A stretch of DNA of 45,749 nucleotides, taken from contig CAIQBY010000260.1 of NCBI GenBank assembly GCA_903870175.1, forward strand, positions 1 to 45,749, written 5' to 3'. The translations under genes and the position numbers were made by a program. Under the pieces are notes generated by a model. The model ran no database searches and was not told the DNA's origin. It was given only the letters and a program-made list of their open reading frames with translations. Source of the DNA: an uncultured Bacteroidota bacterium. GTDB lineage: Bacteria > Bacteroidota > Bacteroidia > 2-12-FULL-35-15. This document shows positions 11,268 to 40,490 of this stretch, one piece after another. Each line of letters begins with the position of its first letter. The stretch's first letter is position 1.

Positions 11268-11625
11268 ACTCATTTCTTTTTGATAAAAACTCATTAGTTG
11301 GTTATCAAAACTAATTGGTTTTTATGCTCGCCTCGTTGCTTTTTATTCTTTACTCAACCCTTTTTTTGCTCAGCTCAAACCTTATTACCCTCAGCTCATT
11401 GGTTTTTGTGCTTTACTCGGTAGTTTTTGCCCAAAACTCCCGAGTAAATGGCATTTACTCCCGAGCTTTTCGTCATTTACTCCTGAGTAAACCCGTTTTA
11501 CTCCCGAGTAAAGTGCTTTTACTCCTGAGTTTTGGCTCCAAACCAATGAGTAAAGCATCAAAACTACCGAGTTGCGGTCAAACACCTGTAAACATTGAAG
11601 AAAATGATTTGAGTTTTGACCCAAA
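11268..11625. repeat. Degenerate 21-bp-period array (15-17 units) with central ACTC-nn-GAGT cores
   Basis: Anchors at 11268, 11289, 11310, 11331, 11352, 11373, 11394, 11415, 11436, 11457, 11479, 11500, 11521, 11542, 11563 (one 22-bp step); a GAG is still in phase at 11611. Confidence 0.85.
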
Positions 11626-11739
11626 ACCTTAAATAGTCCTTTAAAAAGGTAAAAATGCTGGCGAAAAGAAAATAATCAAAGAGCTTTTTTTACCGATTTA
11701 TTAGAGTCAAAAACATTTTATTTCATTGCCGACAAATGA

Positions 11740-11747
11740 CAAAATTA
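11740..11747 (-). promoter_or_regulatory. Possible -7 promoter (TAATTTTG) pointing into the 21-bp array
   Basis: Exact TAnnTTTG on the minus strand; no convincing CDS downstream. Confidence 0.4.
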
Positions 11748-11795
11748 TTCGATATTAACTAAGTTGAAATTTAGGGTTGAACTTATCTTATACAA

Positions 11796-11940
11796 TAGAC
11801 CTCTTTCATAATTCAAGCAGGAGATTCTTCGCTTCGCTCTGAATGACAGGTATTTTTCTCCCCCTCTCCAAAACAAGCGAAACTTGTCATTCAGAGCGAA
11901 GCGAAGAATCTAAAATCAATTGAATTATGAAAGAAGTCTA
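11796..11940. mobile_element. Non-autonomous palindromic element (MITE/REP-like), about 145 bp
   Basis: Outer inverted repeat 20/21 bp (11796-11816 / 11920-11940) with TA at both ends; inner perfect 27-bp inverted repeat agattcttcgcttcgctctgaatgaca (11822-11848 / 11885-11911). Confidence 0.8.
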
Positions 11941-12040
11941 ATTAAATATAAATTTTACCTGCCACTTCTAAAACGCAATTCATTTATCTTATAAATATTA
12001 CATCTTACCTTCTTTTAAAAATTAAAACCTTATTTATTTA

Positions 12041-12048
12041 TACATTTG
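12041..12048 (+). promoter_or_regulatory. -7 promoter element (TACATTTG)
   Basis: TAnnTTTG about 20 bp before the start at 12070. Confidence 0.65.
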
Positions 12049-12069
12049 TAGTTCACTAAATTTAGTACA

Positions 12070-14268
12070 ATGAAAAAATATTACTTAATCCTGTTCTGTT
12101 TTATATCAGTTTATTCATCAGCTCAAAACCTTACAAGGCAGCAAAACAGAACCGTTAACAGATTATTCAAGCATAAAACTGAAATATATTTTACGTTTCA
12201 AATAACCGACAGAAGTGAGATTAATACACTCACCCGAATCATTTCCATTGATAACGTAAAAGACCTGCAGGTATGGGCTGTGGCTAATAAGGAAGAATTC
12301 AAGAAGTTCATCACTCTTAATTATAATTATACCATATTGCCCAATGCCAACAGTAACGTGCATAATCCAATGGGCAGTTTAAGAAGCCCACAATCACATA
12401 CTCCCCTAACCGCATACCCTACTTATCAGCAATATGAAACGATGATGGCAAATTATGCAGTTACTTATCCTTCCATTTGTAAGCTGGTATTAATCGGTAC
12501 ATTGCCCAGCGGACACCGGTTGCTGGCACTTAAAATTTCTTCCAATGTAAATGTTCATCAGGATAAACCTCAGTTTTTATATACCTCAACAATGCACGCC
12601 GACGAGACTGCAGGATACATTGGGATGCTCGATTATGCTGATTATTTATTATCCAATTACGGAACAAATACACGAGTTACCAACCTTATTAATTCTATTG
12701 AGATATGGATAAACCCTCTTGCAAACCCTGATGGAACATATAAAGGCGGAGACAACACAGTAAATGGAGCAATAAGATACAATGCAAATAATGTTGATTT
12801 GAACAGAAATTATCCCGACCCTCAGGCAGGTCAGCATCCTGATGGAAATGCGTGGCAACCCGAAACAGTAGCTTTCATGCACTTTGCCGATTCACTTAAC
12901 TTGACTATGTCGGCTAATTTTCATGGCGGTTCCGAAGTAGTTAATTATCCCTGGGATACCTGGACAAGACTTCATGCAGATAATAACTGGTATGTTAGAG
13001 AATCTGCCAAATATGCGGATACTGCTCAGGCAAATGCTGCAGCTGGTTATTTTACAAGTGTAAATGCAAACGGAATTACTGACGGGTATGCTTGGTATCA
13101 GGTAACAGGCGGTCGTCAGGATTATATGAATTACTATAAACATTGCAGAGAAGTTACCATCGAATTATCAAATACCAAACTTATTCCTACCACAGATTTT
13201 ACAAATAAATGGAATGCAAATAGCAAATCCTATTTGAATTATATGCAGGAATGTCTGCATGGTTTTCGTGGCATAGTTACTGATTCCTGCAGCGGCTTGC
13301 CTCTAAAAGCAAAAGTATTTATTACAGGTCATGATGTAGATAGTTCGCATGTTTACTCCACGTCTTCTGTCGGCGATTATCATCGCCCAATCTATCAGGG
13401 AACATACAGTGTTACATTTTCTGCACCGGGATATGTTTCCAAAACCATAAATAATGTTGTAGTAACAGATATGAATAGTACAAGAGTTGATGTTGCTTTG
13501 CGCCCTTCGGTGATGCCTCTTGTAAGTGCATCCATTACTTCAATTGATACAGTAATTTGTCAGGGAACTGCTGCTGTTTTTAATGCTAATGCAGTTAACG
13601 GAGGAGGCAGTCCTGTATATCAATGGCAAGTAAATGGCAGCAATGCGGGCACCAATAGCAGTACCTTTTCATCTTCCACTTTAGCAAATGGTTCAACAAT
13701 CACATGTCATATCACTTCTTCAAATTCTTGTGTAACAAACAATCCTGCTTCATCAAATACAATTCATTTAATTGTCAATCCGCTTCCTGCAACACCCGTT
13801 ATTTCACAGGCGGGAACAGTATTAAACTCAAATTCAGCTACTGGAAATCAATGGTACAATAGTTCTTCAGGAGGTATAAGCGGCGCAACTGCTGTATCTT
13901 ATTCGCCTTCTGCAAGCGGAGACTACTTCGTAATTGTAACTGATGCCAATAGCTGCAGCTCGGATTCATCAAACATTATTCATTTTGTAAGTAGCGGCAT
14001 CACAGCGTTAAATGATAACAGCAATATTCAGGTATATCCAAATCCATGTAACGAGGAATTGTTTATTTATGTAATCAATAAAAATGCGAGTCAGAATATT
14101 ACTGTTGAAATTTATAATACACTCGGAGAGCAACTCTATAGTGAGAAGTCAGCAGAAAATAAATTAAGAATTAACTGCGGAGTTTTCTCATCAGGAATTT
14201 ACTTTTTGAATATTACAGACGGAAACATTATTCACAAGGAAAAGATAGTTGTAAATAATAAAAACTAA
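12070..14268 (+). CDS. Secreted M14 zinc carboxypeptidase with Ig-like domains and T9SS type A CTD
   Basis: Signal peptide; MHADE (HxxE), DLNRNYP, ANFHGG, TIELS; CTD with VYPNP..GIYF..KIVV. Confidence 0.92.
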   Translation: MKKYYLILFCFISVYSSAQNLTRQQNRTVNRLFKHKTEIYFTFQITDRSEINTLTRIISIDNVKDLQVWAVANKEEFKKFITLNYNYTILPNANSNVHNPMGSLRSPQSHTPLTAYPTYQQYETMMANYAVTYPSICKLVLIGTLPSGHRLLALKISSNVNVHQDKPQFLYTSTMHADETAGYIGMLDYADYLLSNYGTNTRVTNLINSIEIWINPLANPDGTYKGGDNTVNGAIRYNANNVDLNRNYPDPQAGQHPDGNAWQPETVAFMHFADSLNLTMSANFHGGSEVVNYPWDTWTRLHADNNWYVRESAKYADTAQANAAAGYFTSVNANGITDGYAWYQVTGGRQDYMNYYKHCREVTIELSNTKLIPTTDFTNKWNANSKSYLNYMQECLHGFRGIVTDSCSGLPLKAKVFITGHDVDSSHVYSTSSVGDYHRPIYQGTYSVTFSAPGYVSKTINNVVVTDMNSTRVDVALRPSVMPLVSASITSIDTVICQGTAAVFNANAVNGGGSPVYQWQVNGSNAGTNSSTFSSSTLANGSTITCHITSSNSCVTNNPASSNTIHLIVNPLPATPVISQAGTVLNSNSATGNQWYNSSSGGISGATAVSYSPSASGDYFVIVTDANSCSSDSSNIIHFVSSGITALNDNSNIQVYPNPCNEELFIYVINKNASQNITVEIYNTLGEQLYSEKSAENKLRINCGVFSSGIYFLNITDGNIIHKEKIVVNNKN

Positions 14269-14273
14269 AGAAA

Positions 14274-15491: not shown

Positions 15492-15534
15492 ATTATATTG
15501 TTTATTGTTTTTACAAAGGTAGGCTTTTTATTTG

Positions 15535-16539: not shown

Positions 16540-16578
16540 AGATTTAATTTATAATTTGTAATCTGAAATTTGACAATT

Positions 16579-17313: not shown

Positions 17314-17450
17314 TTTAGAGAATCAGATATTAATAATTTGGAGGGTAAAATTAGACTTTTTTATGGTATTTGCCCATAATTAATCCATTTTAACTCAATT
17401 AATAAATTCAGAAATAAACTTAAAAGAAAGTCCTATATTGCTTTTAATAA

Positions 17451-20165: not shown

Positions 20166-21986
20166 TTAACCTTTTTTATTGGCTAATGCAATGACAAACT
20201 TATTTTCCCGCTCTTTATCTTCATTATGTTTGAAATAATAAAGTGAGAAATTATCATAATCCGCTTTTAATTTTTCGTAAGAAAAACCGGGTAATTTATT
20301 GGCAATGTAATAATCCAGATACGCCGGAAAGTCGGTGTACTGGAAGTTATCGCCGAGCTTTGCTTTTAACTGTGCAATTAATTTACTGTTGTAAGTTATA
20401 ATCTCTGTCTTGAACTGATATGGAGAAAAGTTAATGTTCGCGTAGCGGAACGTATCTTTTGTAATTGGCCGTGCATGGATAGGGAACACGAAATTAATGT
20501 CTTTGCTTTCGAAATGTTCAATACTGCCGTGCTTTTCATGACCAATACGTTCGCGATGTTCTATTTTTGAATGTGCTATTAATGTATCTGTCAAGCCGTG
20601 AAACTCCTGTATATAACTGAAGTTTGCAAAATATCCCATACAAGCCTGCCCGCCTTTTATAAGCATTCGCGCATCTATGCCTTCAAAAGCAGCATGCAAA
20701 GCCTTGCCCATTTTTATCTCCGCTTCCATTGGATAATAACTCGTGTAAACGTAACGTTCATCTGACACATCGCCGTTCCATGTTGTTATTTCTTTTCCGT
20801 TTGCATCTGTTTTTTTAAAGATATCCATCCTTAAAGTTGTTTCTATAAAACTTGCCAGAATTAATAGACCGAGATATAGATTTACATTTTTAGGTTTTAC
20901 AAGTTTCAGTATTGAATACAGAATTATAAAATAAATAAATGGTGCAATTGGGATGATAAAACGCGCATACATAAAATCGCCGCCTACTTTGGCAACAAAG
21001 AATATTAAATAAAGAATAACAATCTTTACACTTACCAGAAACGCTGCATTCCAGTTGTCTTTTAAAAATTCTTTGAGGTTGTTTTTAAACTTGTTTTTTA
21101 ATAACGGGAAGATGATAAACAGTGGAAGAATTATTGCCAGCAACGAAACAAAATGTGGTTTGAAATAAAGCCAGATGTAATCAAATCCTTTGCTGAAATT
21201 ACTTTCGTCGCCTAATTTATCGTAGTAAGTATTCGGAAAAATAAAACCATAATAATTATATCTCCAGAGGAAATAAGGAATATAAATAACGATAATGGCG
21301 AGGTTGAAAAACAACAGCGTTTTAATGATTTTTACAATCTCCGTTTTCTGAAAAAATAAATTGCAGACAAAAAGCAGATTCGCCAGAAAGACTATCAATA
21401 GTGTGTCAGGGCGGGTGAGCAATGCCAGACATAAAAATAAACCGGATAACATATATCGTTTTGTTTCTTTTATTTCTGTAAAGAAAAAAACATAAAATGC
21501 AGAGCATAATAAAAAACTGAACAGCGACGTTTCGAGCCCCGAAGTTGCCCATGTATTATAATCATAATTCAGCGCGAGCATCAATGTAATAAAGGGAAGT
21601 ATAAATGTTTTGCTCCGTTTTGATATTTTATAAGTGATGATGGAAACTAATGTTAATGTACCTACGGAAGCCAAAATACCCAGTACCTGCACAGTTACCA
21701 GCGGGTCGCGCTTAAGCCATGTAAAAAAACTGATGAGCATTATCCAGAAAAAATCAGTGAATCCTTCTACTCTTTCGCCTTTATTATAAACGAGTCCGTT
21801 GCCCGAAACAAAATTTTGAACGTATCGCAAAGCAATGAAAATATCATCGCCAAGCCATTTTAATTTGTATGAATAAACAATGCTGACGATGATGGCAAGT
21901 ACTGAAATAGCAATAAAAAGAGTGGTATTATTTTGTTTTGCTGCAGGTAAAGGATGTTGAACTTTTGCTTTCGCTTTTGTAGCCAT
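20166..21986 (-). CDS. Polytopic GT-C-fold glycosyltransferase-like membrane protein
   Basis: DDIFIALRY..GLVYNKGERVEGFT loop, SGLET, TRPD, PNTYY, GGDFM..RF; many TM helices. Confidence 0.8.
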   Translation of the reverse strand: MATKAKAKVQHPLPAAKQNNTTLFIAISVLAIIVSIVYSYKLKWLGDDIFIALRYVQNFVSGNGLVYNKGERVEGFTDFFWIMLISFFTWLKRDPLVTVQVLGILASVGTLTLVSIITYKISKRSKTFILPFITLMLALNYDYNTWATSGLETSLFSFLLCSAFYVFFFTEIKETKRYMLSGLFLCLALLTRPDTLLIVFLANLLFVCNLFFQKTEIVKIIKTLLFFNLAIIVIYIPYFLWRYNYYGFIFPNTYYDKLGDESNFSKGFDYIWLYFKPHFVSLLAIILPLFIIFPLLKNKFKNNLKEFLKDNWNAAFLVSVKIVILYLIFFVAKVGGDFMYARFIIPIAPFIYFIILYSILKLVKPKNVNLYLGLLILASFIETTLRMDIFKKTDANGKEITTWNGDVSDERYVYTSYYPMEAEIKMGKALHAAFEGIDARMLIKGGQACMGYFANFSYIQEFHGLTDTLIAHSKIEHRERIGHEKHGSIEHFESKDINFVFPIHARPITKDTFRYANINFSPYQFKTEIITYNSKLIAQLKAKLGDNFQYTDFPAYLDYYIANKLPGFSYEKLKADYDNFSLYYFKHNEDKERENKFVIALANKKG

Positions 21987-22795: not shown

Positions 22796-22847
22796 AATAT
22801 CCTGTCAAACATCAATTCGCAAATTCGTATCCATTCGTTATCCGTAC

Positions 22848-23567
22848 CTACGGAATTCGGAAACTTTGCGGTGCGCTCCAGTCGCCTTTAATACCGGTAG
22901 CGGTAACCCATCGGGAACAGGAATAAAACAGGAGACCTGAATATTTTGAGTTGAAAACAAGAATCATCGGTGTACGTGTTCCGTCTTCTATCCGTCCATA
23001 ATCATCAGCACTATCGGGTGGCACAGCAAAAGCAATCACTCCTTGAGCATCAGGCGGCAGCGGCGTACAAATAAAAATAGCTGTTTCCACACGTGCTGCA
23101 CCTTCCGGTTTTCCTCTTTTTTTCACACCTTTAGCATCCGGCTGCTGGCGATAAAATGATTTTACATTTGGAGGATTGCCTGCCTGCATCGCCATCAAAG
23201 GCACAGTTGCAGGTTTGCCTATCTTGGTTTTAGTAGTTTTATGTGGTTTTAATCCGCAATCCGACACATCTCCGTCATCCATCGAATCGTTTGCATAAAT
23301 CCATACTTTCACAAATTTACGCATCCATTTACTAAGATTAGCGCGTGCTATGTCTTTTTTATCCCTTTGAGTAGTGTTGGACTTAGTTTTCTTTTTAGTA
23401 ATCGCATATATTTTGCTCCACGCAATAAGCAAAGTCGCGCCTGCTGCTATTACGGTGGTATCAATATCCCAGTCGGCAGCATTATCCGTTACTTCTTCCA
23501 TTATTTGATTTACAAGCGTATCATACGTTTCGTCGGGTCCGCCAAATTGGTCTGTACTGTCTGACAT
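22848..23567 (-). CDS. Cytoplasmic hypothetical protein: predicted helical domain plus FN3-like C-terminal domain
   Basis: Intact 239-aa ORF with no signal peptide; C-terminal KPEG..T.TP..F..RWVTATGIKGDWS..IP pattern; has its own terminator. Confidence 0.8.
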   Translation of the reverse strand: MSDSTDQFGGPDETYDTLVNQIMEEVTDNAADWDIDTTVIAAGATLLIAWSKIYAITKKKTKSNTTQRDKKDIARANLSKWMRKFVKVWIYANDSMDDGDVSDCGLKPHKTTKTKIGKPATVPLMAMQAGNPPNVKSFYRQQPDAKGVKKRGKPEGAARVETAIFICTPLPPDAQGVIAFAVPPDSADDYGRIEDGTRTPMILVFNSKYSGLLFYSCSRWVTATGIKGDWSAPQSFRIP

Positions 23568-23642
23568 TTTATTATTTATTTAATTGTTATTACTATTATT
23601 ATTAACTCTTTTTCCGTTTTATTAAATTACTTTATTTTATTC

Positions 23643-23831
23643 GGGAGTTCCCTGTTTTTATTTGGGAGCTCCTGTTTTTAAAAAGGGACTTCCCGTTTTT
23701 TATTCAGGAGTTCCTGTTTTTTAAAAGGGAGTTCCCTGTTTTTATTTAGGAGCTCAAGTTTTTAAAAAGGGAGTTCCCGTTTTTTATTTGGGAGCTCCTT
23801 TATTTTATTTGGGAGTTCCTGTTTTTTAAAA
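23643..23831. repeat. Nine tandem 21-bp units, consensus GGGAG(T/C)TCCY plus T/A tract
   Basis: Units start at 23643, 23664, 23685, 23706, 23727, 23748, 23769, 23790, 23811; unit 1 equals unit 5. Confidence 0.95.
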
Positions 23832-23880
23832 TTGCCTCCGATTATTTTTACTTTCAAAACCTTCAATGACCTTAACACGA

Positions 23881-23924
23881 CAAAAGTATTTGGTAAAAAG
23901 AAGAGAAACGTAGGGAAGTCCCTA
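23881..23924 (-). promoter_or_regulatory. -7 promoter (TACTTTTG, 23881-23888) with upstream palindrome TAGGGAAGTCCCTA (23911-23924)
   Basis: Exact TAnnTTTG; 6-2-6 inverted repeat in an activator-like position. Confidence 0.65.
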
Positions 23925-23933
23925 TTTCTTTTT

Positions 23934-24374
23934 TTATTTTTCCTGAGAAGATTTATAAAGCGAAGTAATGGATTGTTTGGAAGTACCGCATCCGGTAGAT
24001 TCATTGAGATTAGTAATAATTATTTCCAGCACTTTTTTTCCAATACCTAAATTATCAGCCGCCAGTTGCACTGTTTTCCCATCACTCAATTCAATAAAAG
24101 CTTTTATATCAAGGTCTTTATATCCTTTCTTTTTACAAAAAACAATAAACACGGTATCAATCTCCGAAAGTTCTATAGGCAGCGTCTTTTCAGATATTTC
24201 CGTGATAACAACAGCAAGCGGCAGGTTATGTTCATCATCATATATTACATTGGATAATATAGTTTGATGAACATACAAATAACATTCTCTCATATTATTT
24301 GCTGAATAAATAAATGTACTTGTAGATTGTTTTTTATTATCATAAAAAATAATTAAATATTCTTTTGTTTTCAT
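23934..24374 (-). CDS. Putative regulator with divergent C-terminal LuxR/GerE-type HTH
   Basis: DIKAFIELSDGKTVQLAADNLGIGKKVLEIIITNLNESTG fits the LuxR pattern L..G.T...A..L.I.......... Confidence 0.65.
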   Translation of the reverse strand: MKTKEYLIIFYDNKKQSTSTFIYSANNMRECYLYVHQTILSNVIYDDEHNLPLAVVITEISEKTLPIELSEIDTVFIVFCKKKGYKDLDIKAFIELSDGKTVQLAADNLGIGKKVLEIIITNLNESTGCGTSKQSITSLYKSSQEK

Positions 24375-25128: not shown

Positions 25129-25797
25129 ATGGTTGTGATAAAAAAATTGGTGAATTACTTCCTATCTATATTAATAGTACTTTTTTCTTTCAGAGGATTT
25201 GCGCAGGATTCAACCAAAACAAAGAAATTAGGTTTGATTGTGAAAGCGGATGTGCCGTTGCCCGTTGCAGATTTAGTTTTTTCAAAAGTAGAAAGAGATA
25301 TGTCGCTAACCGTTGAAAAAATAATAAATAGAAGAAATAGTGTACAAGTGACAGGAACGTATCATTTTATTAAAGCCAATGCCAATTCTCCAGATAGTGC
25401 ATTAGCCAATAGAAGAAATATATTTCAAATTATTCCTGAATATAAATTCTTTATTTTGAAACGGAAAGTTTGTTCGGGTCCTTATGTGGGAGCCTATTTA
25501 AAATATATAAGAGATGAAGAAATTTGGGATGAATGGACTGAAACCATTAATTACAATGCTTATCCTAATACTAAAAACACACACTTTTTTGCTGATTATT
25601 ATTATTTCAAATATGCAATTGGAGCAATTACAGGCTGCCAATTTTATATTAGAAACAGAGTAACATTTGATTTTTTATTTGGTGTTGGAGCCAGTAAAAC
25701 ATTTTTGGTGCAAAAGGTTTCAGGAGAAAATATCGGTACTGTTTTGGGTTCGGATTTGGATGGAAGACTTGCTTTTAATGTAGGATATAAGTTTTAA
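25129..25797 (+). CDS. Outer-membrane beta-barrel protein (DUF3575-like)
   Basis: Signal peptide, IIPEYKFF, GPYVGAY, C-terminal FNVGYKF. Confidence 0.75.
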   Translation: MVVIKKLVNYFLSILIVLFSFRGFAQDSTKTKKLGLIVKADVPLPVADLVFSKVERDMSLTVEKIINRRNSVQVTGTYHFIKANANSPDSALANRRNIFQIIPEYKFFILKRKVCSGPYVGAYLKYIRDEEIWDEWTETINYNAYPNTKNTHFFADYYYFKYAIGAITGCQFYIRNRVTFDFLFGVGASKTFLVQKVSGENIGTVLGSDLDGRLAFNVGYKF

Positions 25798-26236: not shown

Positions 26237-28906
26237 TTAATTCAATCCTGTCAATTGTTCTTCAATAGCTTTTATCTTCGCTTCCGCATCAGCTTCTTTC
26301 TTTCGTTCATTGGCAATCAATTCAGGCTTAGCATTGGCAATAAACTTTTCGTTGGATAATTTTATCTGTACAGATTTCAGGAAACCTTTATTGTATTCCA
26401 AATCTTTTGTGAGGCGTTCTTTTTCTTCTCCTTTATTAAGAGCATTACCCAATGGTATAAAAAATTCTCCAAAAGAATTATCATTTCTTTTAACAAAAGT
26501 AATAGCTCCATCAATTACATCATCGGTATATTCAAATGATTCTAAGTTTGCAAGTTTCATAATAATCTTATCGAAATTCCCGCCTCCCTTTGTTTCTACA
26601 CGAACATATAACTTTAGTTGCACTTTAGGAGAGATTTTATACTGCTGACGAATATTTCTTATTGTTGAGATAACATCTTTACACTCTTCAAAAACCTGAA
26701 CCTTATCCCATCTATAATCAACGTTCAATTGTGGCCATTCAGAAATAATTATGCAATCTTTTTCTTCTCTCTTCTTGAGCAAACTCCATATTTCTTCCGT
26801 AATAAAAGGCATAAAAGGATGTAATATTTTTAAAATCCTTTCTAAGAATTCAATAGTAGCATCATAAGTTTTTCTATCAATAGGGAGTGATTTTCCGTCC
26901 ATATATTCAGGCTTAACTATTTCTAAATACCACGCACAGAAATCATCCCAAATTAATTTATATGTTAACATCAATGTTTCACTAATTCGATATTTATCAT
27001 AACAATCATTTATTTTATTTAATTCATTATGAAATTTATTATCGAACCAATCAATGGCAGCTCTATTAATTTCATTAATTTCTAAAGAATCACTTATTTC
27101 CCACCCGTTTACTAAACGAAAGGCATTCCATATTTTATTCGAGAAATTTCTTCCTTGCTCGCAATAACTTTCATCAAAAGGCAAATCATTACCTGCCGGC
27201 GAACACAACAGCATTCCTACACGCACACCGTCGGCACCGTATTTCTCAATCAATTCAATAGGGTCAGGACTATTACCAAGAGATTTACTCATCTTCCTGC
27301 CTTGTTTATCACGCACAATACCCGTTAAATATACATTGGTAAAAGGCTTTGCTCCGCGATATTCATACCCTGCAATAATCATACGCGCCACCCAGAAAAA
27401 TAATATTTCGGGAGCAGTTACTAAATCATTCGTAGGATAATAGTATTTAATATCGGCACCATCAGGGTTTTTGAAACCATCGAAAACAGAAATAGGCCAT
27501 AGCCAAGAGGAAAACCAAGTGTCAAGGACATCTTCATCCTGTTTCAGATTTAGGATTTCAGATTTAGGATTTTGTATTTTGTATTTCTCTATTGCTTCCT
27601 TATGAGTTTTTGCAACAACACAATTGCCTTTATCATCATACCAGGCAGGAATTTGTTGTCCCCACCACAATTGTCGGGAAATACACCAGTCGTGAACATT
27701 TTCCATCCAGTGTTTGTAAGTGTTTACAAATTTTTCAGGAATAAGTTTTATTTCACCATTCAATACATTTTCCAAAGCCGGTTTCGAAATGGTATCCATC
27801 TTCAAAAACCATTGCATCGAAAGCTTTGGCTCTATTACAGCATCCGTTCTTTCTGAATAACCAACTTTGTTTTTGATGTCTTCAACCTTTACTAACTGAC
27901 CCATTTCATCAAGGTCTTTCGCTATTTTTTTACGAACCGCAAATCTATCTTCGCCAATATAGAATTGTGCCGCAGCACTCATCTTTCCATCCGGAGCAAT
28001 GGTATCAACCACTTCAAGATTATGCTTTACCCCAAGATTATAGTCATTAATATCGTGTGCCGGAGTTACTTTCAAAGCTCCGGTACCAAATTCCAAATCA
28101 ATGTATGTGTCAAATATTACTGGCACCGAGCGGTTAACCATTGGAATAATCACACGTTTTCCTCTCAAATGTTTGTAGCGTTCATCATCAGGATGCACAC
28201 AAACAGCAGTATCTCCAAGGATAGTTTCAGGTCGGGTAGTAGCAATAGTTATCCACTCTCCCTCTCCTTTGGAGAGGGCTGGGGTGAGGCTTTCAACTTT
28301 ATATTTTACATAATATAACTTCGAATTTACTTCCTTATGAATCACTTCTTCATCCGAAACAGCTGTCAATCCTAGCGGATCCCAGTTCACCATTCTCACA
28401 CCGCGGTATATCTGGCCTTTATTATATAGGTCAATAAAAACATCAATTACAGCTTCGCTCAAATCATCTTCCATAGTAAATCGGGTACGGTCCCAATCAC
28501 AGGAAGCCCCTAATTTTTCAAGTTGTTTAAGAATAATTCCGCCGTATTTATGTTTCCATTCCCAAGCGTGTTTCAGGAAATCTTCACGAGACAAATCTGT
28601 TTTCTTAATTCCTTTTTCCTTCAGCAAAGCCACCACTTTTGCTTCAGTAGCAATAGAAGCATGGTCGGTACCGGGTACCCAGCAGGCATTTTTGCCCTGC
28701 ATCCGCGCTCTCCTTATCAATACATCCTGAATTGTATTGTTAAGCATATGCCCCATGTGCAGCACCCCTGTTACGTTTGGAGGTGGTATTACTATTGTAT
28801 ATGGTTCACGTTCGTCCGGCGTGGATTTAAAAAATTTATGAGTCAACCAATGGGCATACCATTTGTCTTCTGTAAGTTTTGGGTCGTATGTTTTTGGAAT
28901 ATCCAT
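26237..28906 (-). CDS. valS: Valine--tRNA ligase
   Basis: PPPNVTGVLHMGH, DWCISRQLWWG, DVLDTWFSS, KMSKSLGN, C-terminal coiled coil. Confidence 0.98.
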   Translation of the reverse strand: MDIPKTYDPKLTEDKWYAHWLTHKFFKSTPDEREPYTIVIPPPNVTGVLHMGHMLNNTIQDVLIRRARMQGKNACWVPGTDHASIATEAKVVALLKEKGIKKTDLSREDFLKHAWEWKHKYGGIILKQLEKLGASCDWDRTRFTMEDDLSEAVIDVFIDLYNKGQIYRGVRMVNWDPLGLTAVSDEEVIHKEVNSKLYYVKYKVESLTPALSKGEGEWITIATTRPETILGDTAVCVHPDDERYKHLRGKRVIIPMVNRSVPVIFDTYIDLEFGTGALKVTPAHDINDYNLGVKHNLEVVDTIAPDGKMSAAAQFYIGEDRFAVRKKIAKDLDEMGQLVKVEDIKNKVGYSERTDAVIEPKLSMQWFLKMDTISKPALENVLNGEIKLIPEKFVNTYKHWMENVHDWCISRQLWWGQQIPAWYDDKGNCVVAKTHKEAIEKYKIQNPKSEILNLKQDEDVLDTWFSSWLWPISVFDGFKNPDGADIKYYYPTNDLVTAPEILFFWVARMIIAGYEYRGAKPFTNVYLTGIVRDKQGRKMSKSLGNSPDPIELIEKYGADGVRVGMLLCSPAGNDLPFDESYCEQGRNFSNKIWNAFRLVNGWEISDSLEINEINRAAIDWFDNKFHNELNKINDCYDKYRISETLMLTYKLIWDDFCAWYLEIVKPEYMDGKSLPIDRKTYDATIEFLERILKILHPFMPFITEEIWSLLKKREEKDCIIISEWPQLNVDYRWDKVQVFEECKDVISTIRNIRQQYKISPKVQLKLYVRVETKGGGNFDKIIMKLANLESFEYTDDVIDGAITFVKRNDNSFGEFFIPLGNALNKGEEKERLTKDLEYNKGFLKSVQIKLSNEKFIANAKPELIANERKKEADAEAKIKAIEEQLTGLN
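27542..27583. repeat. 6 x 7-bp repeat (42 bp, frame-preserving) inside valS
   Basis: tttcaga tttagga tttcaga tttagga ttttgta ttttgta; peptide YKIQNPKSEILNLK. Confidence 0.85.
28258..28290. repeat. REP-like GC-rich hairpin inside valS
   Basis: ccctctcc-ttt-ggagaggg (28260-28278) followed by ctggggtgaggc; peptide SLTPALSKGEGE. Confidence 0.8.
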
Positions 28907-31421: not shown

Positions 31422-31435
31422 ATTTATAGAAGAGT

Positions 31436-32224: not shown

Positions 32225-32389
32225 TGAGAGGCGGTAAACTATTCAACGTCAAAATTAATAAATTAATATATCAATACTGCTATTTTGTCAAATTAATTTT
32301 CAACAAAATCAAGACATTTAAGACAGCAGTTTTTGTTCGCGGATGTAATATGTATTTCTTAACGGAGAAAAAGCCGGAATATTATAAAC

Positions 32390-32587: not shown

Positions 32588-32703
32588 TTGCTTCTCCTTA
32601 TTTGTTTAATAATTCCGAATGTAAAATTACAATAAATACTTTCTGCAAATAAAAAAACTTAAACATTAGCTGTAATTGTTAATTTTACTGCAAAATTTTA
32701 TTA

Positions 32704-34812: not shown

Positions 34813-34827
34813 AAGTTAGATATTAAT

Positions 34828-35766: not shown

Positions 35767-36010
35767 TATTTAATTTAATACAACTATTACTATCTGAGTC
35801 CATCTTGTTTTTAAAGATGTGCAAATATGTAAAAATTATTTTAATATCCAACAGTTAATTTATGTTAACCCTTATTATTTTTATTTCTCAGAAAATTATC
35901 CTCCCTCAAAATTTAATTTCACCAAAATCTTCAGATATATCAAATTAATTACTCAATATTCAGAAAAACCTTATATTTGTCGAACTATTAATTAATAAAT
36001 TCATAATATA

Positions 36011-36199
36011 ATGAAAACAGGTACAGTAAAGTTTTTTAACAATGCAAAAGGTTTTGGTTTTATCGCAAGTGATGATGGACAGGAATTGTTCGTTCATGTA
36101 ACTGGTATTGTTGACCAGATTCGCGATGGAGACAAAGTAACTTTTGATATTGCTGAAGGTAAAAAAGGATTAAACGCAGTGAATGTAAAAAAAGCATAA
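36011..36199 (+). CDS. csp: Cold-shock protein
   Basis: GTVKFFN..KGFGFI (RNP1), LFVH (RNP2); -7 element TATATTTG at 35972-35979. Confidence 0.96.
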   Translation: MKTGTVKFFNNAKGFGFIASDDGQELFVHVTGIVDQIRDGDKVTFDIAEGKKGLNAVNVKKA

Positions 36200-36217
36200 T
36201 TGTTATAGCTTATCCTT

Positions 36218-36255
36218 AAAAAAAATCCCGTCTTTGAAAAAAGACGGGATTTTTT
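36218..36255. terminator. Bidirectional intrinsic terminator between csp and rng
   Basis: aaaaaatcccgtcttt / aaagacgggatttttt. Confidence 0.9.
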
Positions 36256-36270
36256 ATTTAATACCTGATG

Positions 36271-36298
36271 TTTAGAATTTAGATATTAGAATTTAGAA
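36271..36298. repeat. 4 x 7-bp TTTAGAA-type repeat
   Basis: tttagaa tttagat attagaa tttagaa. Confidence 0.75.
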
Positions 36299-36306
36299 TT
36301 TAAAAC

Positions 36307-37860
36307 CTATACCTTTATTTCATCATCATTTTTATTTAAGAAATGATATTCCAAAAAGTTGTATGACGAAACAGCTTTCACCTTCAAGGTTTTGCCGTAT
36401 TTTTTACTCCACTGTCTGCGTAGCGAATTAAATATTCCTCTTGTTATAAATGCCTCCAGATATGGATGAACACAAAGAGTTACACCCGATTCATTTTGTT
36501 CTTTTAATATATATCTAACATTGTTTTCTATTTCATCCATCAACAATATACTTGCCTGTATCTCACCGCTGCCGCCGCATGTAGGACATTTCTCTACAGT
36601 CACAATATTCATTTCAGGGCGCACACGCTGACGCGTAATCTGTATCAACCCGAATTTACTTGGTGGCAGAATATTATGCTTTGCCCTGTCCTTCGCCATT
36701 TCATCACGCATCCTTTCGTAAAGCATTTTACGATTATCAGCATTATGCAAGTCGATAAAATCAACAACTATAATACCGCCCATATCGCGCAATCGCAATT
36801 GGCGTGCTATTTCTACAGCTGCTTCCAGGTTTATTTCCAGCGCATTTGTTTCCTGATTGTTATCCGATTTTGCACGATTGCCGCTGTTCACGTCAATCAC
36901 GTGCATCGCCTCAGTATGCTCCACTATCAGGTAACCGCCACTTTTCATGGTTACAGTTTTTCCAAACAGCGCTTTTATTTGTCTGTCAATCCCGAAATTA
37001 TCAAAGATGGGAACAGTCCCTTTATATAGTTTTAGTATTTTCTCTTTATCAGGCGCAATAGTTTGCAAATACGTTTTTGTTTCTTCATACAATTCAGCAT
37101 CATTTATATGAATACTGTTAAAGCTCGCATTCAATAAATCACGAAGTATGGCAGATGTTCTGTCAATTTCACCAAGTACTTTTTGCGGAGGTTGTGCAGT
37201 TTTTAATGCCTGATAACATTTTTCCCATTTCGCCACCAAATCATTCAAGTCAGCATCAAGGTCAGCTACCGATTTTCCTTCAGCAACAGTTCTTATAATA
37301 ACTCCGAAATTTTTTGGCTTTATGCTCGCAAGCAATCTTTTTAATCGCGTTTTCTCTTCGTTGGTTTTTATTTTTTGCGATACAGAAATCTTGTCCGAAA
37401 AAGGAATCAGAACAATATATCTTCCTGCCAGCGAAATTTCTGTTGTAATTCTCGGACCCTTTGTAGAAATCGGTTCCTTCGCTATCTGAATAAGAAGCTG
37501 TTGATTTGCATTTATTACAGTTCCTATTTTCCCGTCTTTCGGTATATCATTTTCCAGTTTAAAATACATCAGGTTCGATGTAGTTTGTTTTTCTGTCTGA
37601 ACAAGTTTTGTGTACTTGCTAAACGAGTTGGCTTGCGGACCTAAGTCCAGATAATGCAAGAATGCGTCTTTTTCGTATCCCACATCCACAAAGGCGGCAT
37701 TCAATCCGGGCATCACTTTTTTTACCCGTCCAAGATATATGTCGCCAACCGAAAAATTATTGTTGCTCTTCTCACGATTAAGTTCTACTAATCGTTTATC
37801 ATTCAATAAAGCAATAACAACTTCGGAGGGAGTGGAATCAATGATTAATTCGTTGTTCAC
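36307..37860 (-). CDS. rng: Rne/Rng family ribonuclease (RNase G/E)
   Basis: S1 domain GDIYLGRV..AAFVDVG, KEPISTKGPR, IDVNSG, RQLRLRDMGGIIVVDFID, CPTC Zn link. Confidence 0.95.
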   Translation of the reverse strand: MNNELIIDSTPSEVVIALLNDKRLVELNREKSNNNFSVGDIYLGRVKKVMPGLNAAFVDVGYEKDAFLHYLDLGPQANSFSKYTKLVQTEKQTTSNLMYFKLENDIPKDGKIGTVINANQQLLIQIAKEPISTKGPRITTEISLAGRYIVLIPFSDKISVSQKIKTNEEKTRLKRLLASIKPKNFGVIIRTVAEGKSVADLDADLNDLVAKWEKCYQALKTAQPPQKVLGEIDRTSAILRDLLNASFNSIHINDAELYEETKTYLQTIAPDKEKILKLYKGTVPIFDNFGIDRQIKALFGKTVTMKSGGYLIVEHTEAMHVIDVNSGNRAKSDNNQETNALEINLEAAVEIARQLRLRDMGGIIVVDFIDLHNADNRKMLYERMRDEMAKDRAKHNILPPSKFGLIQITRQRVRPEMNIVTVEKCPTCGGSGEIQASILLMDEIENNVRYILKEQNESGVTLCVHPYLEAFITRGIFNSLRRQWSKKYGKTLKVKAVSSYNFLEYHFLNKNDDEIKV

Positions 37861-38064
37861 TCTAAAATGTTTTAAATAAATACAATTATCCCATCTCTCG
37901 CTTTCGGAGCAGCAGGATAAATTCTAATGTTTTTTTAACAGGGCTAATTCCGGAAATGTACCGGAACGAAGATAAACTTAAGTGCGTAAATAAACAGAAT
38001 GGGAAATCCCATCCTGTTATAATAATGCTACAAACGCAATTAAAACTAACAGCTTATTCAGCTA

Positions 38065-38154
38065 TTATTTTTTCTTATGTCTATTTTTCCTCAAACGTTT
38101 TTTACGTTTGTGAGTAGCCATTTTATGTCTTTTTCTTTTTTTACCGCTTGGCAT
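38065..38154 (-). CDS. 30S ribosomal protein bS22 (mS38/AURKAIP1-COX24-like), not in the ORF track
   Basis: Hand translation MPSGKKRKRHKMATHKRKKRLRKNRHKKK* (29 aa). Confidence 0.9.
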   Translation of the reverse strand: MPSGKKRKRHKMATHKRKKRLRKNRHKKK

Positions 38155-38166
38155 AACTAATGGTTT

Positions 38167-38997
38167 TTAATTTGTTTTTAATTTATTTATATAATCTCTC
38201 GTTTCTTTCTTTACCGATTCATCGTCCACCAACGAATAATATTTCTCAAGGCTCTCAATCGCTTTCGCTTTATCACCTTTTTGCTGATACGCATCCGATA
38301 GATGCAGATAAGCATCAATAAAATCAGGCTTCAGCACCAACACCTTTTCAAATCTTCTTATTGCCCTGTCCCATTGCCCTGATTTCTCACTGAAAAAAGC
38401 GAAGTTCAATTGCAGATTCACATTGTTCGAATCCGTTTTTTCCGCCTCTCTCAACAGCCCGATTCCTTTCATCGGTTCCGGACTACCTTCCACATAGCAA
38501 GCACCTAAATTAATTTTAGCCTCCATGTTTTTCGGATTCAGTTCCAGTGTTTTTTCATAACACTCAATCGCCTTCCCGTATATCAGCCCCTTGTCACCTT
38601 CAGCAGCCAGTCGTGCAGCACCAAAAAACCGGTTGCCCGCCTCATACCAGTTCTGCTCATTTGGCGAAGCCATCGCAGCCTGCTCAAAATAATAAGCAGC
38701 CACAGCAGGCTGTCGCAAAGTATCCCATTGATTAATGATATTCTCAAAAGCAGTCTTTTTATCCGGCGAACTTTTCACAGCTTCCTCCATCATCTCCACT
38801 TCTTTTTTCTGAGAAGCAGACAGCTTAGCTTTCGCATTTTCAATCAACGTCAATATCCCTGCACTATTCGGTGTCGAATGTTCCGACATTTTCGCCTCCT
38901 CCTTTTTAGGAATCGTAGTGTTGGTAAATAATAAAAGAACGATTAATACTATCGAGCCTGCAATTACCCCTATTTGTGTTTTAGTCACAGCGCCCAT
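38167..38997 (-). CDS. Membrane-anchored tetratricopeptide repeat protein
   Basis: N-terminal TM helix; AIECYEKTLELNP, AIRRFEKVL, AYLHLSDAY repeats. Confidence 0.88.
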   Translation of the reverse strand: MGAVTKTQIGVIAGSIVLIVLLLFTNTTIPKKEEAKMSEHSTPNSAGILTLIENAKAKLSASQKKEVEMMEEAVKSSPDKKTAFENIINQWDTLRQPAVAAYYFEQAAMASPNEQNWYEAGNRFFGAARLAAEGDKGLIYGKAIECYEKTLELNPKNMEAKINLGACYVEGSPEPMKGIGLLREAEKTDSNNVNLQLNFAFFSEKSGQWDRAIRRFEKVLVLKPDFIDAYLHLSDAYQQKGDKAKAIESLEKYYSLVDDESVKKETRDYINKLKTN

Positions 38998-39001
38998 TCA
39001 A

Positions 39002-39029
39002 TTTAGAATTTAGAAATTAGTATTTAGAA
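39002..39029. repeat. 4 x 7-bp TTTAGAA-type repeat
   Basis: tttagaa tttagaa attagta tttagaa. Confidence 0.75.
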
Positions 39030-39048
39030 TTTCCATTCTAAAACTTAA

Positions 39049-39366
39049 TTACTTTGTTTTAGCTTTTCTTTCTTTCTTAACCTTCTTAACCGATTTCTTC
39101 ATGTTATTCGAAAACGTTTTAGCAGCCTTAAAAGCAGCAATATTATGAGCCGGAATAAGAACAGTAGTTTTCGCTGTTATATTTCTACCCAATTTCTCAG
39201 CACGTCTTTTAACCACAAATGTTCCAAAACCTCTCAAATATACGCTTTCACCGTTTATCATCGATTCCTTCACTGTTTTCATAAATGCTTCAACAGTTGC
39301 CATTACCACTACTTTTTCTACTCCTGTGTTTTTTGCAATTTCGTTTACAATTCCTGCTTTTGTCAT
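39049..39366 (-). CDS. hup: HU/IHF family DNA-binding protein with Lys-rich tail
   Basis: MTKA.IV..IA, VYLRGFGTF..RAEKLGRNI; -7 element TATATTTG at 39424-39431. Confidence 0.93.
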   Translation of the reverse strand: MTKAGIVNEIAKNTGVEKVVVMATVEAFMKTVKESMINGESVYLRGFGTFVVKRRAEKLGRNITAKTTVLIPAHNIAAFKAAKTFSNNMKKSVKKVKKERKAKTK

Positions 39367-39505
39367 ACTCTATTAATTATTTTAAAATCAACTATTTATT
39401 TACTTTATTTTTATTTTGGGGTGCAAATATAGTATTTTATTGCATTCAGAAAACTTTTATTTTACTTTTCCCCGTGATAATCGATTAATAATTAATATTT
39501 TCTTA

Positions 39506-39619
39506 TCACTCCTTCACAAGTTTCATCACCCTCGTCTCTCTCTGCTTATCGTAGGAATCCGTTATTACAGAAACAAAATAAATGCCCGGCGCATTATCAA
39601 GAGTAATATTTATTTCCCT
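39506..39619 (-). pseudogene. Orphan 3' remnant of a T9SS type A CTD gene
   Basis: Hand translation REINITLDNAPGIYFVSVITDSYDKQRETRVMKLVKE*; no start codon; begins right after the 39622 stop in a different frame. Confidence 0.7.
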
Positions 39620-39621
39620 GG

Positions 39622-40290
39622 TTAAAATTTATATCCAATATTTATTGCAAACCTGCCGTCTAAATTCCATGATGGGATAAAATCTCCATTGTTAATATAA
39701 GTGCTGTTGGATTTTGTTGTTAAGATTTTCAACTCTCTCTCTCCGCCTAAACCAATTAGGAAATCAAGTACAAACCTATTTTTTATACAATATTGAAAGC
39801 CTGTAATAGCACCTAAAGAGAATGAATAAAAATAATAATAATCAGTATTTGTTGGATAGAAAACACCATCATGCCAAACATTCCCTTTCGCTGCTTCATA
39901 CATAAAAGTAATATAAGATCCTACATATGGGCCTGAACAAACTTTCCTTTTCAAAATAAAAAATTTGTATTCAGGAATAATAAGTGTTCTTTTACTTTCG
40001 AGAGAAGCACTAGAAAAGTAAATATTCGGTTCTTCATATTTATAATATAGATAAATACCAGTTAATTGAATACTCTGCCTTTTTCCAATTGTTTTTTCTA
40101 TGGTTAAAGATGCTTGTTTTTCAGTATATTTTGATGTCAAAGCAAGTACAGGCAATAGTATATCCGTTTTCACAATCAACCCAATTGGTTTTCTTTTGAT
40201 GGAATCCTGTCCTTCCATTTTTCCAAAGAAACAAAAACAAAACAATACAATAAACAAATGCCTTTTCATTCCTTCAATTTTAAATTCCAA
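39622..40290 (-). CDS. Outer-membrane beta-barrel protein (DUF3575-like), paralog of 25129..25797; likely start is MKRHLF
   Basis: Shares IIPEYKFFILKRKVCSGPYVG and LDGR..N.GYKF; -7 element TAACTTTG at 40292-40299. Confidence 0.78.
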   Translation of the reverse strand: MEFKIEGMKRHLFIVLFCFCFFGKMEGQDSIKRKPIGLIVKTDILLPVLALTSKYTEKQASLTIEKTIGKRQSIQLTGIYLYYKYEEPNIYFSSASLESKRTLIIPEYKFFILKRKVCSGPYVGSYITFMYEAAKGNVWHDGVFYPTNTDYYYFYSFSLGAITGFQYCIKNRFVLDFLIGLGGERELKILTTKSNSTYINNGDFIPSWNLDGRFAINIGYKF

Positions 40291-40328
40291 ACAAAGTTAA
40301 TATTTAATCCATCTATTCTTCCAAAAAC

Positions 40329-40364
40329 AAAGAATCCCGTTCTTTTTCAATAACGGGATTCTTT
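40329..40364 (-). terminator. Intrinsic terminator downstream of the 312-aa gene and its array
   Basis: aaagaatcccgtt / aacgggattcttt stem with a T-rich tail on the minus strand. Confidence 0.8.
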
Positions 40365-40490
40365 AAGGTAATGTCGAAGATTTTTGTGGTAAAAACTTAA
40401 ATTTCTGTGGTAATCTTCAAAAATTCCGTGGTAAAAACTTCATTTTTTGTGGTAGAATTTTAAAATTCTTTGGTAAAAACATAGTTTTTC
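40365..40490. repeat. Six 21-bp-period units with GTGGTA core
   Basis: Cores at 40365 (aaggta), 40386, 40407, 40428, 40449 and 40470 (ttggta). Confidence 0.88.

Follow-up and report, generated by a model that had tools for sequence, protein, structure and literature searches.

The three arrays of 21-bp period found in the window (the whole 45,749-nt stretch of DNA that was analysed) are members of a genome-wide noncoding population in which the period is locked at 21 bp, while the sequence of the unit is private to each locus. Arrays of this kind are kept across genera next to particular genes, above all genes for small proteins with a predicted helix bundle and an FN3-like domain, and they belong to the catalogued class of tandem repeats with constant size (20-21 nt) and variable sequence. 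The window arrays and their neighbours are as follows.

8881..11115, plus strand: TonB-dependent receptor gene, upstream of array 1 (Pfam PF00593, PF07715)
11127..11150, no strand: terminator-like hairpin directly behind the TonB receptor gene (hairpin scan)
11257..11625, no strand: array 1, a degenerate 21-bp-period array with ACTC/GAGT words, partly dyad TTTACTC-nn-GAGTAAA (TRF and lag-21 match)
12070..14268, plus strand: gene for an M14 carboxypeptidase with a T9SS sorting domain (Pfam PF00246, PF18962)
22848..23567, minus strand: gene for a 239-aa orphan protein, its start 63 bp from array 2 (no Pfam or PHROG match)
23630..23831, no strand: array 2, 9 units of 21 bp (TRF and a lag-21 match of 0.67)
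23910..23925, no strand: small hairpin resembling a terminator, which follows the 146-aa gene beyond array 2 (hairpin scan)
23934-24374, minus strand: 146-aa gene beyond array 2
39622..40290, minus strand: gene for a 222-aa DUF3575 protein, downstream of array 3 (Pfam PF12099)
40330..40363, minus strand: inverted repeat (arms 12 bp, loop 10 nt) with TGTTTTTGGA next on the minus strand (read from the sequence)
40363..40490, no strand: array 3, made up of about 5-6 21-bp units, with the word GTGGTA and a 42-bp higher order (TRF and lag-21 match)
40502..41440, minus strand: 312-aa gene without known family (ORF list; no Pfam match)

The first-pass annotation had described three arrays sharing a 21-bp period, and this description is borne out. 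When lags from 14 to 28 are compared, lag 21 scores highest in every interval, with self-match values of 0.55 (11268-11625), 0.67 (23643-23831) and 0.57 (40365-40490) against 0.20-0.47 at the other lags, and the best lag reached the observed value in 0 of 2000 mononucleotide shuffles of each of the three intervals; the signal drops towards the right end of array 1 (11531-11625; lag-21 match 0.43, P=0.0165). A lag-21 scan of the whole window (105-bp windows, match at least 0.55) returns exactly three regions, 11257-11571, 23605-23856 and 40363-40530, and all three arrays are intergenic judging from the ORF list and Pfam. TRF places the best-kept core of array 1 at 11436-11530 (period 21, 4.5 copies, 72% matches), array 2 at 23635-23828 (period 21, 9.2 copies, 70% matches; 81% at period 42 and 84% at period 84) and array 3 at 40380-40480 (period 21, 4.8 copies, 65% matches, 9% indels; 79% at period 42). 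The units of array 2 alternate between GGGAGTTCCC and GGAGCTCC dyads with T-rich linkers and a 42/84-bp higher order, and some of the diversity among units is higher-order structure of this kind (42/84-bp superunits), i.e. duplication history. The further claim that core words are kept while the bases between them vary stands by eye in the three arrays but fades to a weak tendency genome-wide, where the clustering of variable columns has a mean z of 0.45 and exceeds 1.64 in 14 of 93 arrays (t-test p=2.9e-5). Nor does the argument that plain VNTRs would have near-identical units speak for a function by itself: unit identities across the arrays of the genome span 55-98% and array 2 reaches 84% at the 84-bp level, as expected of ageing arrays with multi-unit duplications. 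A CRISPR array was considered as well and rejected, the units abutting head to tail at the 21-bp period with no room for spacers.

The window arrays are three of many. In the TRF output for the whole genome to which the window belongs (G000), period 21 accounts for 378 rows, period 20 for 32 and period 22 for 23, in addition to 145, 79 and 26 rows at the multiples 42, 63 and 84; a Markov-3 simulated genome that served as control gave 3 rows at period 21. Merging the period-21 rows leaves 342 loci with a total length of 55.4 kb, at a density of about 87 per Mb. Long intergenic arrays make up 221 of these loci and take up about 10% of the intergenic DNA of the genome. According to gene calls made for this analysis, and after removal of 69 small ORFs that the arrays themselves create, 221 long arrays are intergenic, 11 lie in real genes and 3 are mixed, so that the arrays are not decayed heptad-coding ORFs. 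Spacing rather than sequence is conserved, as had been supposed from the window: the 192 unit consensuses fall into 149 sequence families, the largest of which comprises 4 loci. Substitutions within arrays are ordinary (1086 transitions versus 1021 transversions), and dyad arms of at least 5 occur in 63 of the 192 units where about 22 are expected. Within units the 10.5-bp phasing of AA/TT or W is not enriched (harmonic 2 at 0.76-0.90 of shuffles), and intrinsic curvature was rejected on these values; harmonic 3 is raised 1.6-fold. The survey of arrays sampled 11 genomes. Random samples of four other genomes (400 kb) gave 13 TRF rows at period 21, with periods 19, 20, 22 and 23 all empty, and five sampled genomes of the same genus (G014, G018, G002, G004 and G012) have no long array, which makes dense arrays dispensable.

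Metagenome contigs offer a view of variation in natural populations. Array 1 has an allele that is 42 bp longer, consisting of a back-step of 37 plus 5 new letters at 11512/11476 and present in contigs of two of four lake metagenome runs; the difference of 42 bp amounts to two whole units. Contigs also span array 2, where three of four runs carry a variant with a 4-bp deletion at 23741. Close strains were found neither among genome contigs nor among metagenome contigs, the best ValRS identities being 85% (partial) and 81%. An array paralogous to array 2 and 76% identical to it is located elsewhere in the same genome (G000:C392:8633-8870), while a DNA search with array 2 and its flanks in 30 relatives returned short unrelated matches only, orthologous intergenic DNA being too diverged.

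The arrays keep company with particular genes. The AF2 model of the 239-aa protein next to array 2 (pLDDT 84.8) predicts three long N-terminal helices followed by a C-terminal FN3-like sandwich; models of this architecture match FN3 domains only in Foldseek, and no DNA-binding fold (winged helix, ribbon-helix-helix) was recognised in the AF2 models or by Foldseek. Relatives of the protein were found on none of the viral contigs. In iterative HMM searches with four protein families, the 239-aa protein proved to belong to a family of 12 members in G000, A1. Upstream sequence exists for 10 of the members, and every one of these is preceded by an array at a distance of 60-300 bp, with units that differ from member to member. 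Among A1 homologues in 15 other genomes, a 21/42-bp array lies within 800 bp upstream at 18 of 25 loci (in 12 cases at least 100 bp long); these loci have 21 arrays upstream versus 1 downstream, and the upstream enrichment is 24- to 34-fold over a baseline of 0.030 per 800 bp. The presence of arrays beside A1-family genes persists across genera at 13-23% protein identity, and 10 of 19 A1-adjacent arrays have dyad arms of at least 5, versus 11% of shuffles. A second family of helix-and-FN3 proteins, A2, has an array on either side in 6 of 10 members in G000 and at 16 of 25 loci elsewhere, where arrays are upstream in 7 cases and downstream in 9, at least two of them in convergent gaps. Comparison of A1 and A2 by hhalign shows no similarity, so the link between both families is one of architecture only. 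The first-pass annotation had named two outcomes that would speak against it, a random occurrence of arrays with respect to gene families and an origin from decayed heptad-coding ORFs; what was found is a non-random association in the one case and a noncoding population in the other. About 200 of the 221 long arrays are not beside recognised members of these families. Samples of 5 of 6 genomes with A1 (G000 included) contained long arrays, as did 0 of 5 where A1 was not found.

The other two window arrays have positional counterparts. Array 1 begins about 110 bp beyond the hairpin that follows the TonB receptor gene, and the M14 carboxypeptidase gene starts 445 bp downstream of the array; the orthologue of the carboxypeptidase in G006 (61% identical) has a 9-copy 21-bp array with a different unit 315 bp upstream, and the orthologues in G008, G015 and G017 have no 21-bp array. 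Likewise the DUF3575 homologue in G025 (32% identical) has a 12-copy 21-bp array with a different unit 175 bp upstream, and the homologue in G016 has none. Array 3 starts 12 bp past the stop codon of the 312-aa gene and may for this reason be part of a 3' untranslated region; the inverted repeat between array 3 and the DUF3575 gene, which the hairpin scan missed owing to its loop limit of 8, looks like a terminator. Where a gene follows an array, the array appears to lie upstream of the core promoter, judging from the consensus TANNTTTG, adopted here as a presumed -7 motif. This consensus reaches a density of 2.9/kb in the stretch that separates the array from the ATG, compared with 0.24/kb within arrays and 0.55/kb on their other side, and it is present in 54% of 212 array-gene pairs at a median of 38.5 bp from the ATG. 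Dyad centres show no phasing relative to the motif (n=17, Rayleigh p=0.6).

We tentatively favour the reading, to which we give somewhat less than an even chance, that the arrays act as DNA, namely as same-face docking lattices kept by selection. Slippage or unequal recombination by whole units would hand on the period while concerted evolution would overwrite the sequence, and the two processes together would lead to the same spacing with different words. Twenty-one is the smallest whole number of base pairs to give integral turns of B-DNA (2 x 10.5), and no other period would let some 10 successive units all face the same way. Such a lattice of sites, often dyad-symmetric, could dock a dimeric or oligomerising DNA-binding protein, which in turn would set the activity of the neighbouring gene with copy number as a tunable parameter. 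The period lock, the noncoding location, the private sequences, the whole-unit allele and the enrichment of dyads are all consistent with docking, as are the promoter geometry, the retention upstream of A1 genes, the same period in other genomes and the arrays of different unit sequence at the corresponding positions in G006 (for array 1) and G025 (for array 3). However, 149 unit families would call for many specificities or for a read-out of shape, the units lack 10.5-bp AA/TT or W phasing, their dyad centres are unphased to the -7 motif and the conservation of columns within units is weakly clustered. The distribution of arrays poses difficulties too: of the 168 long arrays that could be classified, 32 are flanked by convergent genes, array counts roughly follow intergenic bp, A2 arrays elsewhere occur on both sides of the gene (7 upstream and 9 downstream of 25 loci), array 3 sits between a stop codon and a terminator-like hairpin, and the five sampled same-genus genomes do without long arrays.

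Another explanation, which we regard as unlikely, is that the arrays are near-neutral or selfish minisatellites. A lineage-specific mutational 'ruler' would make and expand 21-bp duplications; these would have no host function, travel within composite dispersed elements and survive wherever intergenic DNA is long enough to accommodate them. Array counts per context do track intergenic bp (84 codirectional, 52 divergent and 32 convergent versus 254, 121 and 66 kb), unit families recur at 2-4 loci, the substitution spectrum is ordinary, array density differs greatly among genomes of the same genus, and of 419 array flanks, 195 group with the flank of some other array. A further point in its favour is an array-adjacent element (ACE) of about 100 bp, which adjoins arrays in 14 of its 17 copies in G000 (12 of 12 among the best matches) in a fixed orientation, next to arrays of unrelated units and beside unrelated genes; it was not found in 5 other genomes in a search that had no positive control. 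None of the three window arrays has the ACE; a likeness seen by eye beside array 2 was rejected as not significant, the best match near this array having an E of 0.22. What a selfish origin accounts for poorly is that arrays are enriched 24- to 34-fold ahead of the genes of one protein family in 15 other genomes, with 21 arrays upstream versus 1 downstream, and the persistence of arrays at 13-23% protein identity. We also know of no enzymatic process that measures 21 bp, which counts against a mutational ruler. The same period in distant phyla, as given in the searched text of PMC8161180, is a further point against it.

Alternatively, the 21-nt unit might matter in RNA, the arrays being transcribed into repeated-hairpin RNAs that serve as parts of UTRs, small RNAs or protein sponges; we consider this improbable. 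Dyad-symmetric units are enriched, array 3, between stop codon and terminator-like hairpin, probably lies in a 3' UTR, and Subirana and Messeguer report that arrays of a 52-nt repeat are transcribed in Bacillus coagulans (PMC8625621). On the other hand, the -7 motif separates array from gene and hardly occurs within or beyond the arrays, two thirds of the units have no notable dyad, the ACE alignment contains 0 consensus structure pairs, and Rfam has 0 matches in the window and none in 8 array flanks at E<=1. Flavo-1 was found beside one of six other array flanks tested.

By analogy with iteron/Rep and ParR/parC, each helix-bundle and FN3 protein could bind a private array beside its own gene, with the arrays elsewhere as further targets; we rate such cognate pairs as quite improbable. 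They would account for array adjacency in two families of the same architecture without detectable sequence similarity, which holds on either side of the gene for A1 (10 of 10 in G000, 19 of 25 elsewhere) and regardless of side for A2, for the units that differ between paralogues, half of them dyads, and for the presence of long arrays in samples of 5 of 6 genomes with A1, versus 0 of 5 where A1 was not found. But the fold matches FN3 only, with no DNA-binding fold recognised, about 200 of 221 arrays are not next to recognised members, and the comparison covers a small number of related genomes, some of them selected for carrying the A1 family. In a bolder form, on which we would stake equally little, these proteins would be a new kind of sequence-specific DNA-binding protein, each polymerising on the private array beside its own gene, and co-diversification of paralogues and arrays would have given many orthogonal protein-DNA filament modules; in a variant, the ACE would act like a leader that seeds arrays. 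If true, such modules would supply the long-missing binding partner of repeats with constant size and variable sequence. Finally, NarL/FixJ-type heptamer arrays and decayed coding heptad repeats (7 aa = 21 bp) have next to no probability, for although TACTCCT is present in array 1, 21 is a multiple of 3 and open frames in units are slightly above shuffles (4.20 versus 3.76 of 6), the heptamer TACYYMT to which the first-pass annotation had likened the cores occurs 59 times in the window with 3 instances in array 1 and none in the other two arrays, lag-7 self-match shows no excess (5.39 versus 5.60) and hence no 7-bp sub-period, ORFs that cover arrays score low and have about the length of the array, a codon pattern in variable columns is absent by eye, and the units are unrelated.

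The arrays can be compared with several known systems. Iteron and centromere arrays (Rep/iterons, ParR-parC, SopB-sopC) consist of direct repeats that measure about two helical turns, in many cases contain a dyad core and lie beside the gene of a cooperative binder, and the arrays of G000 resemble them in that tandem repeats of about 20 bp adjoin a gene, here that of a helix-bundle and FN3 protein as putative binder. They differ in that iteron and centromere systems number one or few per replicon and have RHH or winged-helix binders and partner ATPases, whereas here there are hundreds per chromosome and the neighbours are helix-bundle and FN3 proteins. Contingency-locus VNTRs ahead of promoters, such as the repeat tracts of Neisseria and Haemophilus, have units of 1-7 bp and change promoter spacing or reading frame. 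The likeness lies in copy-variable repeats upstream of multi-copy, fast-evolving genes, as illustrated by the +42-bp allele; in contrast, the arrays described here step by whole double turns, such that helical phase is preserved.

Within Bacteroidota a parallel is BrickBuilt, a minisatellite-bearing MITE of Porphyromonas gingivalis with reported promoter activity (Klein et al. 2015, PMC4596501). BrickBuilt is described as an intergenic array of units of about 20 nt, present in multiple copies with a conserved leader and tail, and as such resembles a G000 array with its ACE tail of about 100 bp; a conserved tail of this length adjoins 14 arrays in G000 and none of the three in the window. Unlike BrickBuilt, with one 23-nt unit in all 19 copies, the G000 arrays have period 21, 149 families and an ACE beside unrelated units.

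The closest match overall is the class of bacterial tandem repeats described by Subirana and Messeguer (PMC8161180), which the searched text characterises by a constant size (20-21 nt, or 52 nt), a variable sequence and an unknown function. A genome of this kind contains many noncoding arrays, whose families have no sequence in common. Its families are species-specific, and the class is found in Bacillus and also in Cyanobacteria, Actinobacteria and others; the authors note the length of two helical turns and propose protein polymerisation on DNA, or small RNAs. The G000 arrays share with this class, as portrayed there, a unit length of 20-21 nt that dominates the tandem repeats of the genome, several sequence families in one genome (149 from 192 units), a location outside coding amino-acid repeats (221 intergenic versus 11 in genes by our own calls) and species specificity, the search with array 2 and its flanks in 30 relatives having returned short unrelated matches only and the ACE not being found in 5 other genomes. 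'Bacteroidetes' is absent from the searched text of PMC8161180, whose supplementary tables may list Bacteroidota, and our literature searches found no description of 21-bp arrays in this phylum. The literature leaves open what bacterial repeats of fixed 20-21-nt length but free sequence do, and G000 is an extreme case: its 342 loci compare with 22-29 repeats in the '21-nt-rich' Bacillus genomes of Table 4 in PMC8161180. There are practical consequences as well, since arrays break short-read assemblies (53 of the 221 long arrays are at contig ends) and create spurious small ORFs (69 in G000) that affect the annotation of such MAGs. While the searched text of PMC8161180 reports no gene-family link, promoter geometry or array-adjacent element, the G000 arrays show all three: adjacency to helix-bundle and FN3 genes across genera, a candidate promoter motif between array and gene, and the ACE at 14 arrays. 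Gene-linked modules together with whole-unit alleles in natural populations make the question of function testable.

The 21-bp periodicity that the first-pass annotation described at three places in the window is real. Tandem Repeats Finder (TRF) assigns period 21 to all three arrays, and in each of the intervals originally named 21 is the top lag among 14–28 (0.55, 0.67 and 0.57), values matched by none of 2000 shuffles. A lag-21 scan across the whole window recovers these three regions and no other, and all three are intergenic:

11257-11625: array 1, 3' of a TonB-dependent receptor gene and its terminator-like hairpin, with an M14 peptidase/T9SS gene starting 445 bp downstream
23630-23831: array 2, upstream of a 239-aa orphan gene at a distance of 63 bp
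40363-40490: array 3, with the stop codon of a 312-aa gene on one side and, on the other, an inverted repeat (12-bp arms) preceding a DUF3575 gene

The window, one contig of a 423-contig, 3.95-Mb assembly, is chromosomal Bacteroidota DNA; it carries ValRS, RNase E/G, HU and T9SS cargo. It holds a DUF3575 paralogue pair (25129-25797 and 39622-40290, 48% identical) with an array beside the second only. A stretch of ~40 bp where the 239-aa gene ends (22807-22850) has matches of 83-97% identity at dozens of sites in this genome and in 15 related ones, and is a widespread short repeat.

Across the whole assembly TRF returns 1816 rows, among them 378 at period 21, 145 at 42, 79 at 63 and 26 at 84, against 32 at period 20 and 23 at 22 in the same run; a genome simulated by a third-order Markov model gave 206 rows, only three of them at period 21. 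Merging the rows at multiples of 21 yields 342 loci (55.4 kb in total; median copy number 8). Genes were called with a home-made caller, and 69 small ORFs made of array sequence, which would seed false gene calls, were removed before context was counted. Long arrays (at least 100 bp) are intergenic in 221 cases, within real genes in 11 and mixed in three, and the intergenic ones occupy 46 kb out of 441 kb of intergenic DNA. They fall in codirectional (84), divergent (52) and convergent (32) gaps, numbers that approximately follow the amount of intergenic sequence in each, or stand at contig ends (53 of the 221); the arrays fragment the short-read assembly.

Upstream arrays are over-represented at the genes of several families of orphan proteins 205-255 aa long; in one of them (fam12) six of ten members have one. 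A profile seeded on one such family collects 12 proteins of this genome, including the 239-aa product of the window, and a 21-bp array, with differing units, lies 60-300 bp upstream of all ten genes that have upstream sequence, the remaining two being at contig ends. The 239-aa protein has no match in Pfam or PHROG and only seven homologues in a collection of 5.8 billion proteins; its predicted structure (pLDDT 84.8) consists of three long helices and an FN3-like sandwich. A search of 201 class-level genomes detected this family (A1) in 18, mostly in multiple copies. From 30 surveyed loci, two from the present genome and three partial matches were set aside, leaving 25 loci in 15 genomes; a 21/42-bp array lies within 800 bp upstream in 18 of these, reaching at least 100 bp in 12, and random samples totalling 400 kb give a baseline of 0.030 per 800 bp. 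At these 25 loci 21 arrays lie upstream versus one downstream. The fam12 family (A2) shows no similarity to A1 in sequence and shares its helix-bundle and FN3 architecture in predicted structures; it was found in 11 of the 201 genomes, eight of which also have A1. Of 25 A2 loci elsewhere, seven have arrays upstream and nine have them downstream (of three downstream cases inspected, two occupy convergent gaps and one precedes the next gene); the adjacency of gene and array is therefore general and its side variable. Arrays 1 and 3 have positional counterparts with different units at an M14 orthologue (genome G006) and a DUF3575 homologue (G025) respectively; further homologues of these two genes have no array. 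Long arrays turned up in the samples from five of six genomes where A1 was found (the present one counted) and in none of five where it was not, a small comparison of related genomes, some picked as family carriers. Selection for the presence of an array beside helix-bundle and FN3 genes is well supported.

Contigs covering the window region in four lake-water metagenome runs of one study, which may be the source of the genome, reveal variation. Array 1 has a 42-bp insertion, exactly two units, in two of the four runs, and array 2, which is spanned by contigs, has a 4-bp deletion at 23741 in three, which would disrupt the 21-bp register at one unit. No close strain was found, the best ValRS identity being 81-85%. 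Metagenome loci around ValRS (1.13 Mb) gave 19 rows at period 21 versus three at 20 and two at 22, with long arrays in six loci (L133, L140, L152, L153, L174 and L203); in 80 loci from genome contigs period 21 was not in excess (eight rows versus four at 20 and nine at 22). Two relatives carry a long array directly 3' of ValRS (L133:3506-3745 and L017:12650-12952, ValRS identity 81% and 73%), a position at which the window has none. Random samples of same-genus genomes contained no long array in G014, G018, G002 and G004 (100 kb each), G007 (36 kb), G012 (61 kb), G001 (20 kb) and G011 (39 kb), and two in G006 (100 kb). Genomes of other families gave two (G021), one (G150) and two (G025) per 100 kb, and the four positive samples had no rows at periods 19, 20, 22 or 23.

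Of 419 array flanks, 195 are similar to those of other arrays, and one cluster is a dispersed element of ~100 bp whose consensus begins AAAAAACCTTCATTAACGCGATTT. A model search found 17 copies (for example, on contigs of the assembly, C38:560-664, C324:520-624 and C312:9687-9791). Fourteen of these, the 12 best hits among them, directly adjoin a 21/42-bp array, always by the same side and in one orientation. Among the adjoining arrays there are at least ten distinct units, and the neighbouring genes are unrelated and in either orientation; searches of five other genomes, and of the surroundings of the window's arrays, did not detect the element. Selfish spread of the arrays is conceivable in the light of such dispersal, and we regard it as unlikely overall. 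The other flank clusters comprise terminators, a GC-rich dispersed hairpin element and Flavo-1 (in one of six flanks tested). The GC-rich element (containing ACTTGCAACTGCGCCCGACCCGCGTGAGTATCCTTTTTTT), seen beside several arrays (C33:~3650-3798, C392:~21080-21233, C275:~13436-13590), fails the Rfam threshold as a Flavo-1 candidate. A dispersed word of ~19 nt, TTCGACAAGCTCAGTRACC, occurs at 34 places with up to three mismatches (for example C127:3931, C234:754 and C383:2884-2946), sometimes in tandem with a 22-bp step, and a 21-bp array lies within 500 bp of ten copies.

Units themselves are diverse (192 consensuses fall into 149 sequence families), with weak clustering of variable columns and 39% GC versus 30% in the remaining intergenic DNA. 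Inverted repeats with arms of at least 5 occur inside 63 of 192 units versus ~22 expected. The ~100-bp element has no consensus RNA structure or Rfam match. A role of the arrays at the RNA level appears improbable. The motif TANNTTTG, which we take to be the Bacteroidota -7 motif, peaks genome-wide 20-40 bp before start codons, and among 212 array-gene pairs its density is 2.9/kb in the spacer to the ATG, 0.24/kb within arrays and 0.55/kb beyond them. Arrays might act as DNA docking lattices, a mechanism that we infer tentatively and would put somewhat short of an even chance. Putative cognate binding of each array by the protein encoded next to it likewise seems improbable.

Heptanucleotide tandem repeats, too, greatly exceed expectation, with 175 period-7 rows versus one in the simulated genome, mostly apart from the 21-bp loci. 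In the window they lie at 36271-36302, 39000-39032, 27542-27586 and 8114-8148, and recurring heptamers include AAATTCT (=TTTAGAA; 35 loci), AATTACG (17) and AAGTATT (13). Heptamer STRR repeats are known in cyanobacteria, of which these are reminiscent.

The arrays of the window are members of a repeat class that is known but unexplained, and this Bacteroidota genome is unusually rich in it. Bacterial tandem repeats whose unit size is constant (20-21 or 52 nt) and whose sequence varies were described by Subirana and Messeguer, who remark on the two-turn unit length, suggest protein polymerisation or small RNAs and state that the function is unknown (PMC8161180, PMC8625621, PMC6749651). BrickBuilt is a minisatellite MITE with a 23-nt unit of a single sequence (PMC4596501).
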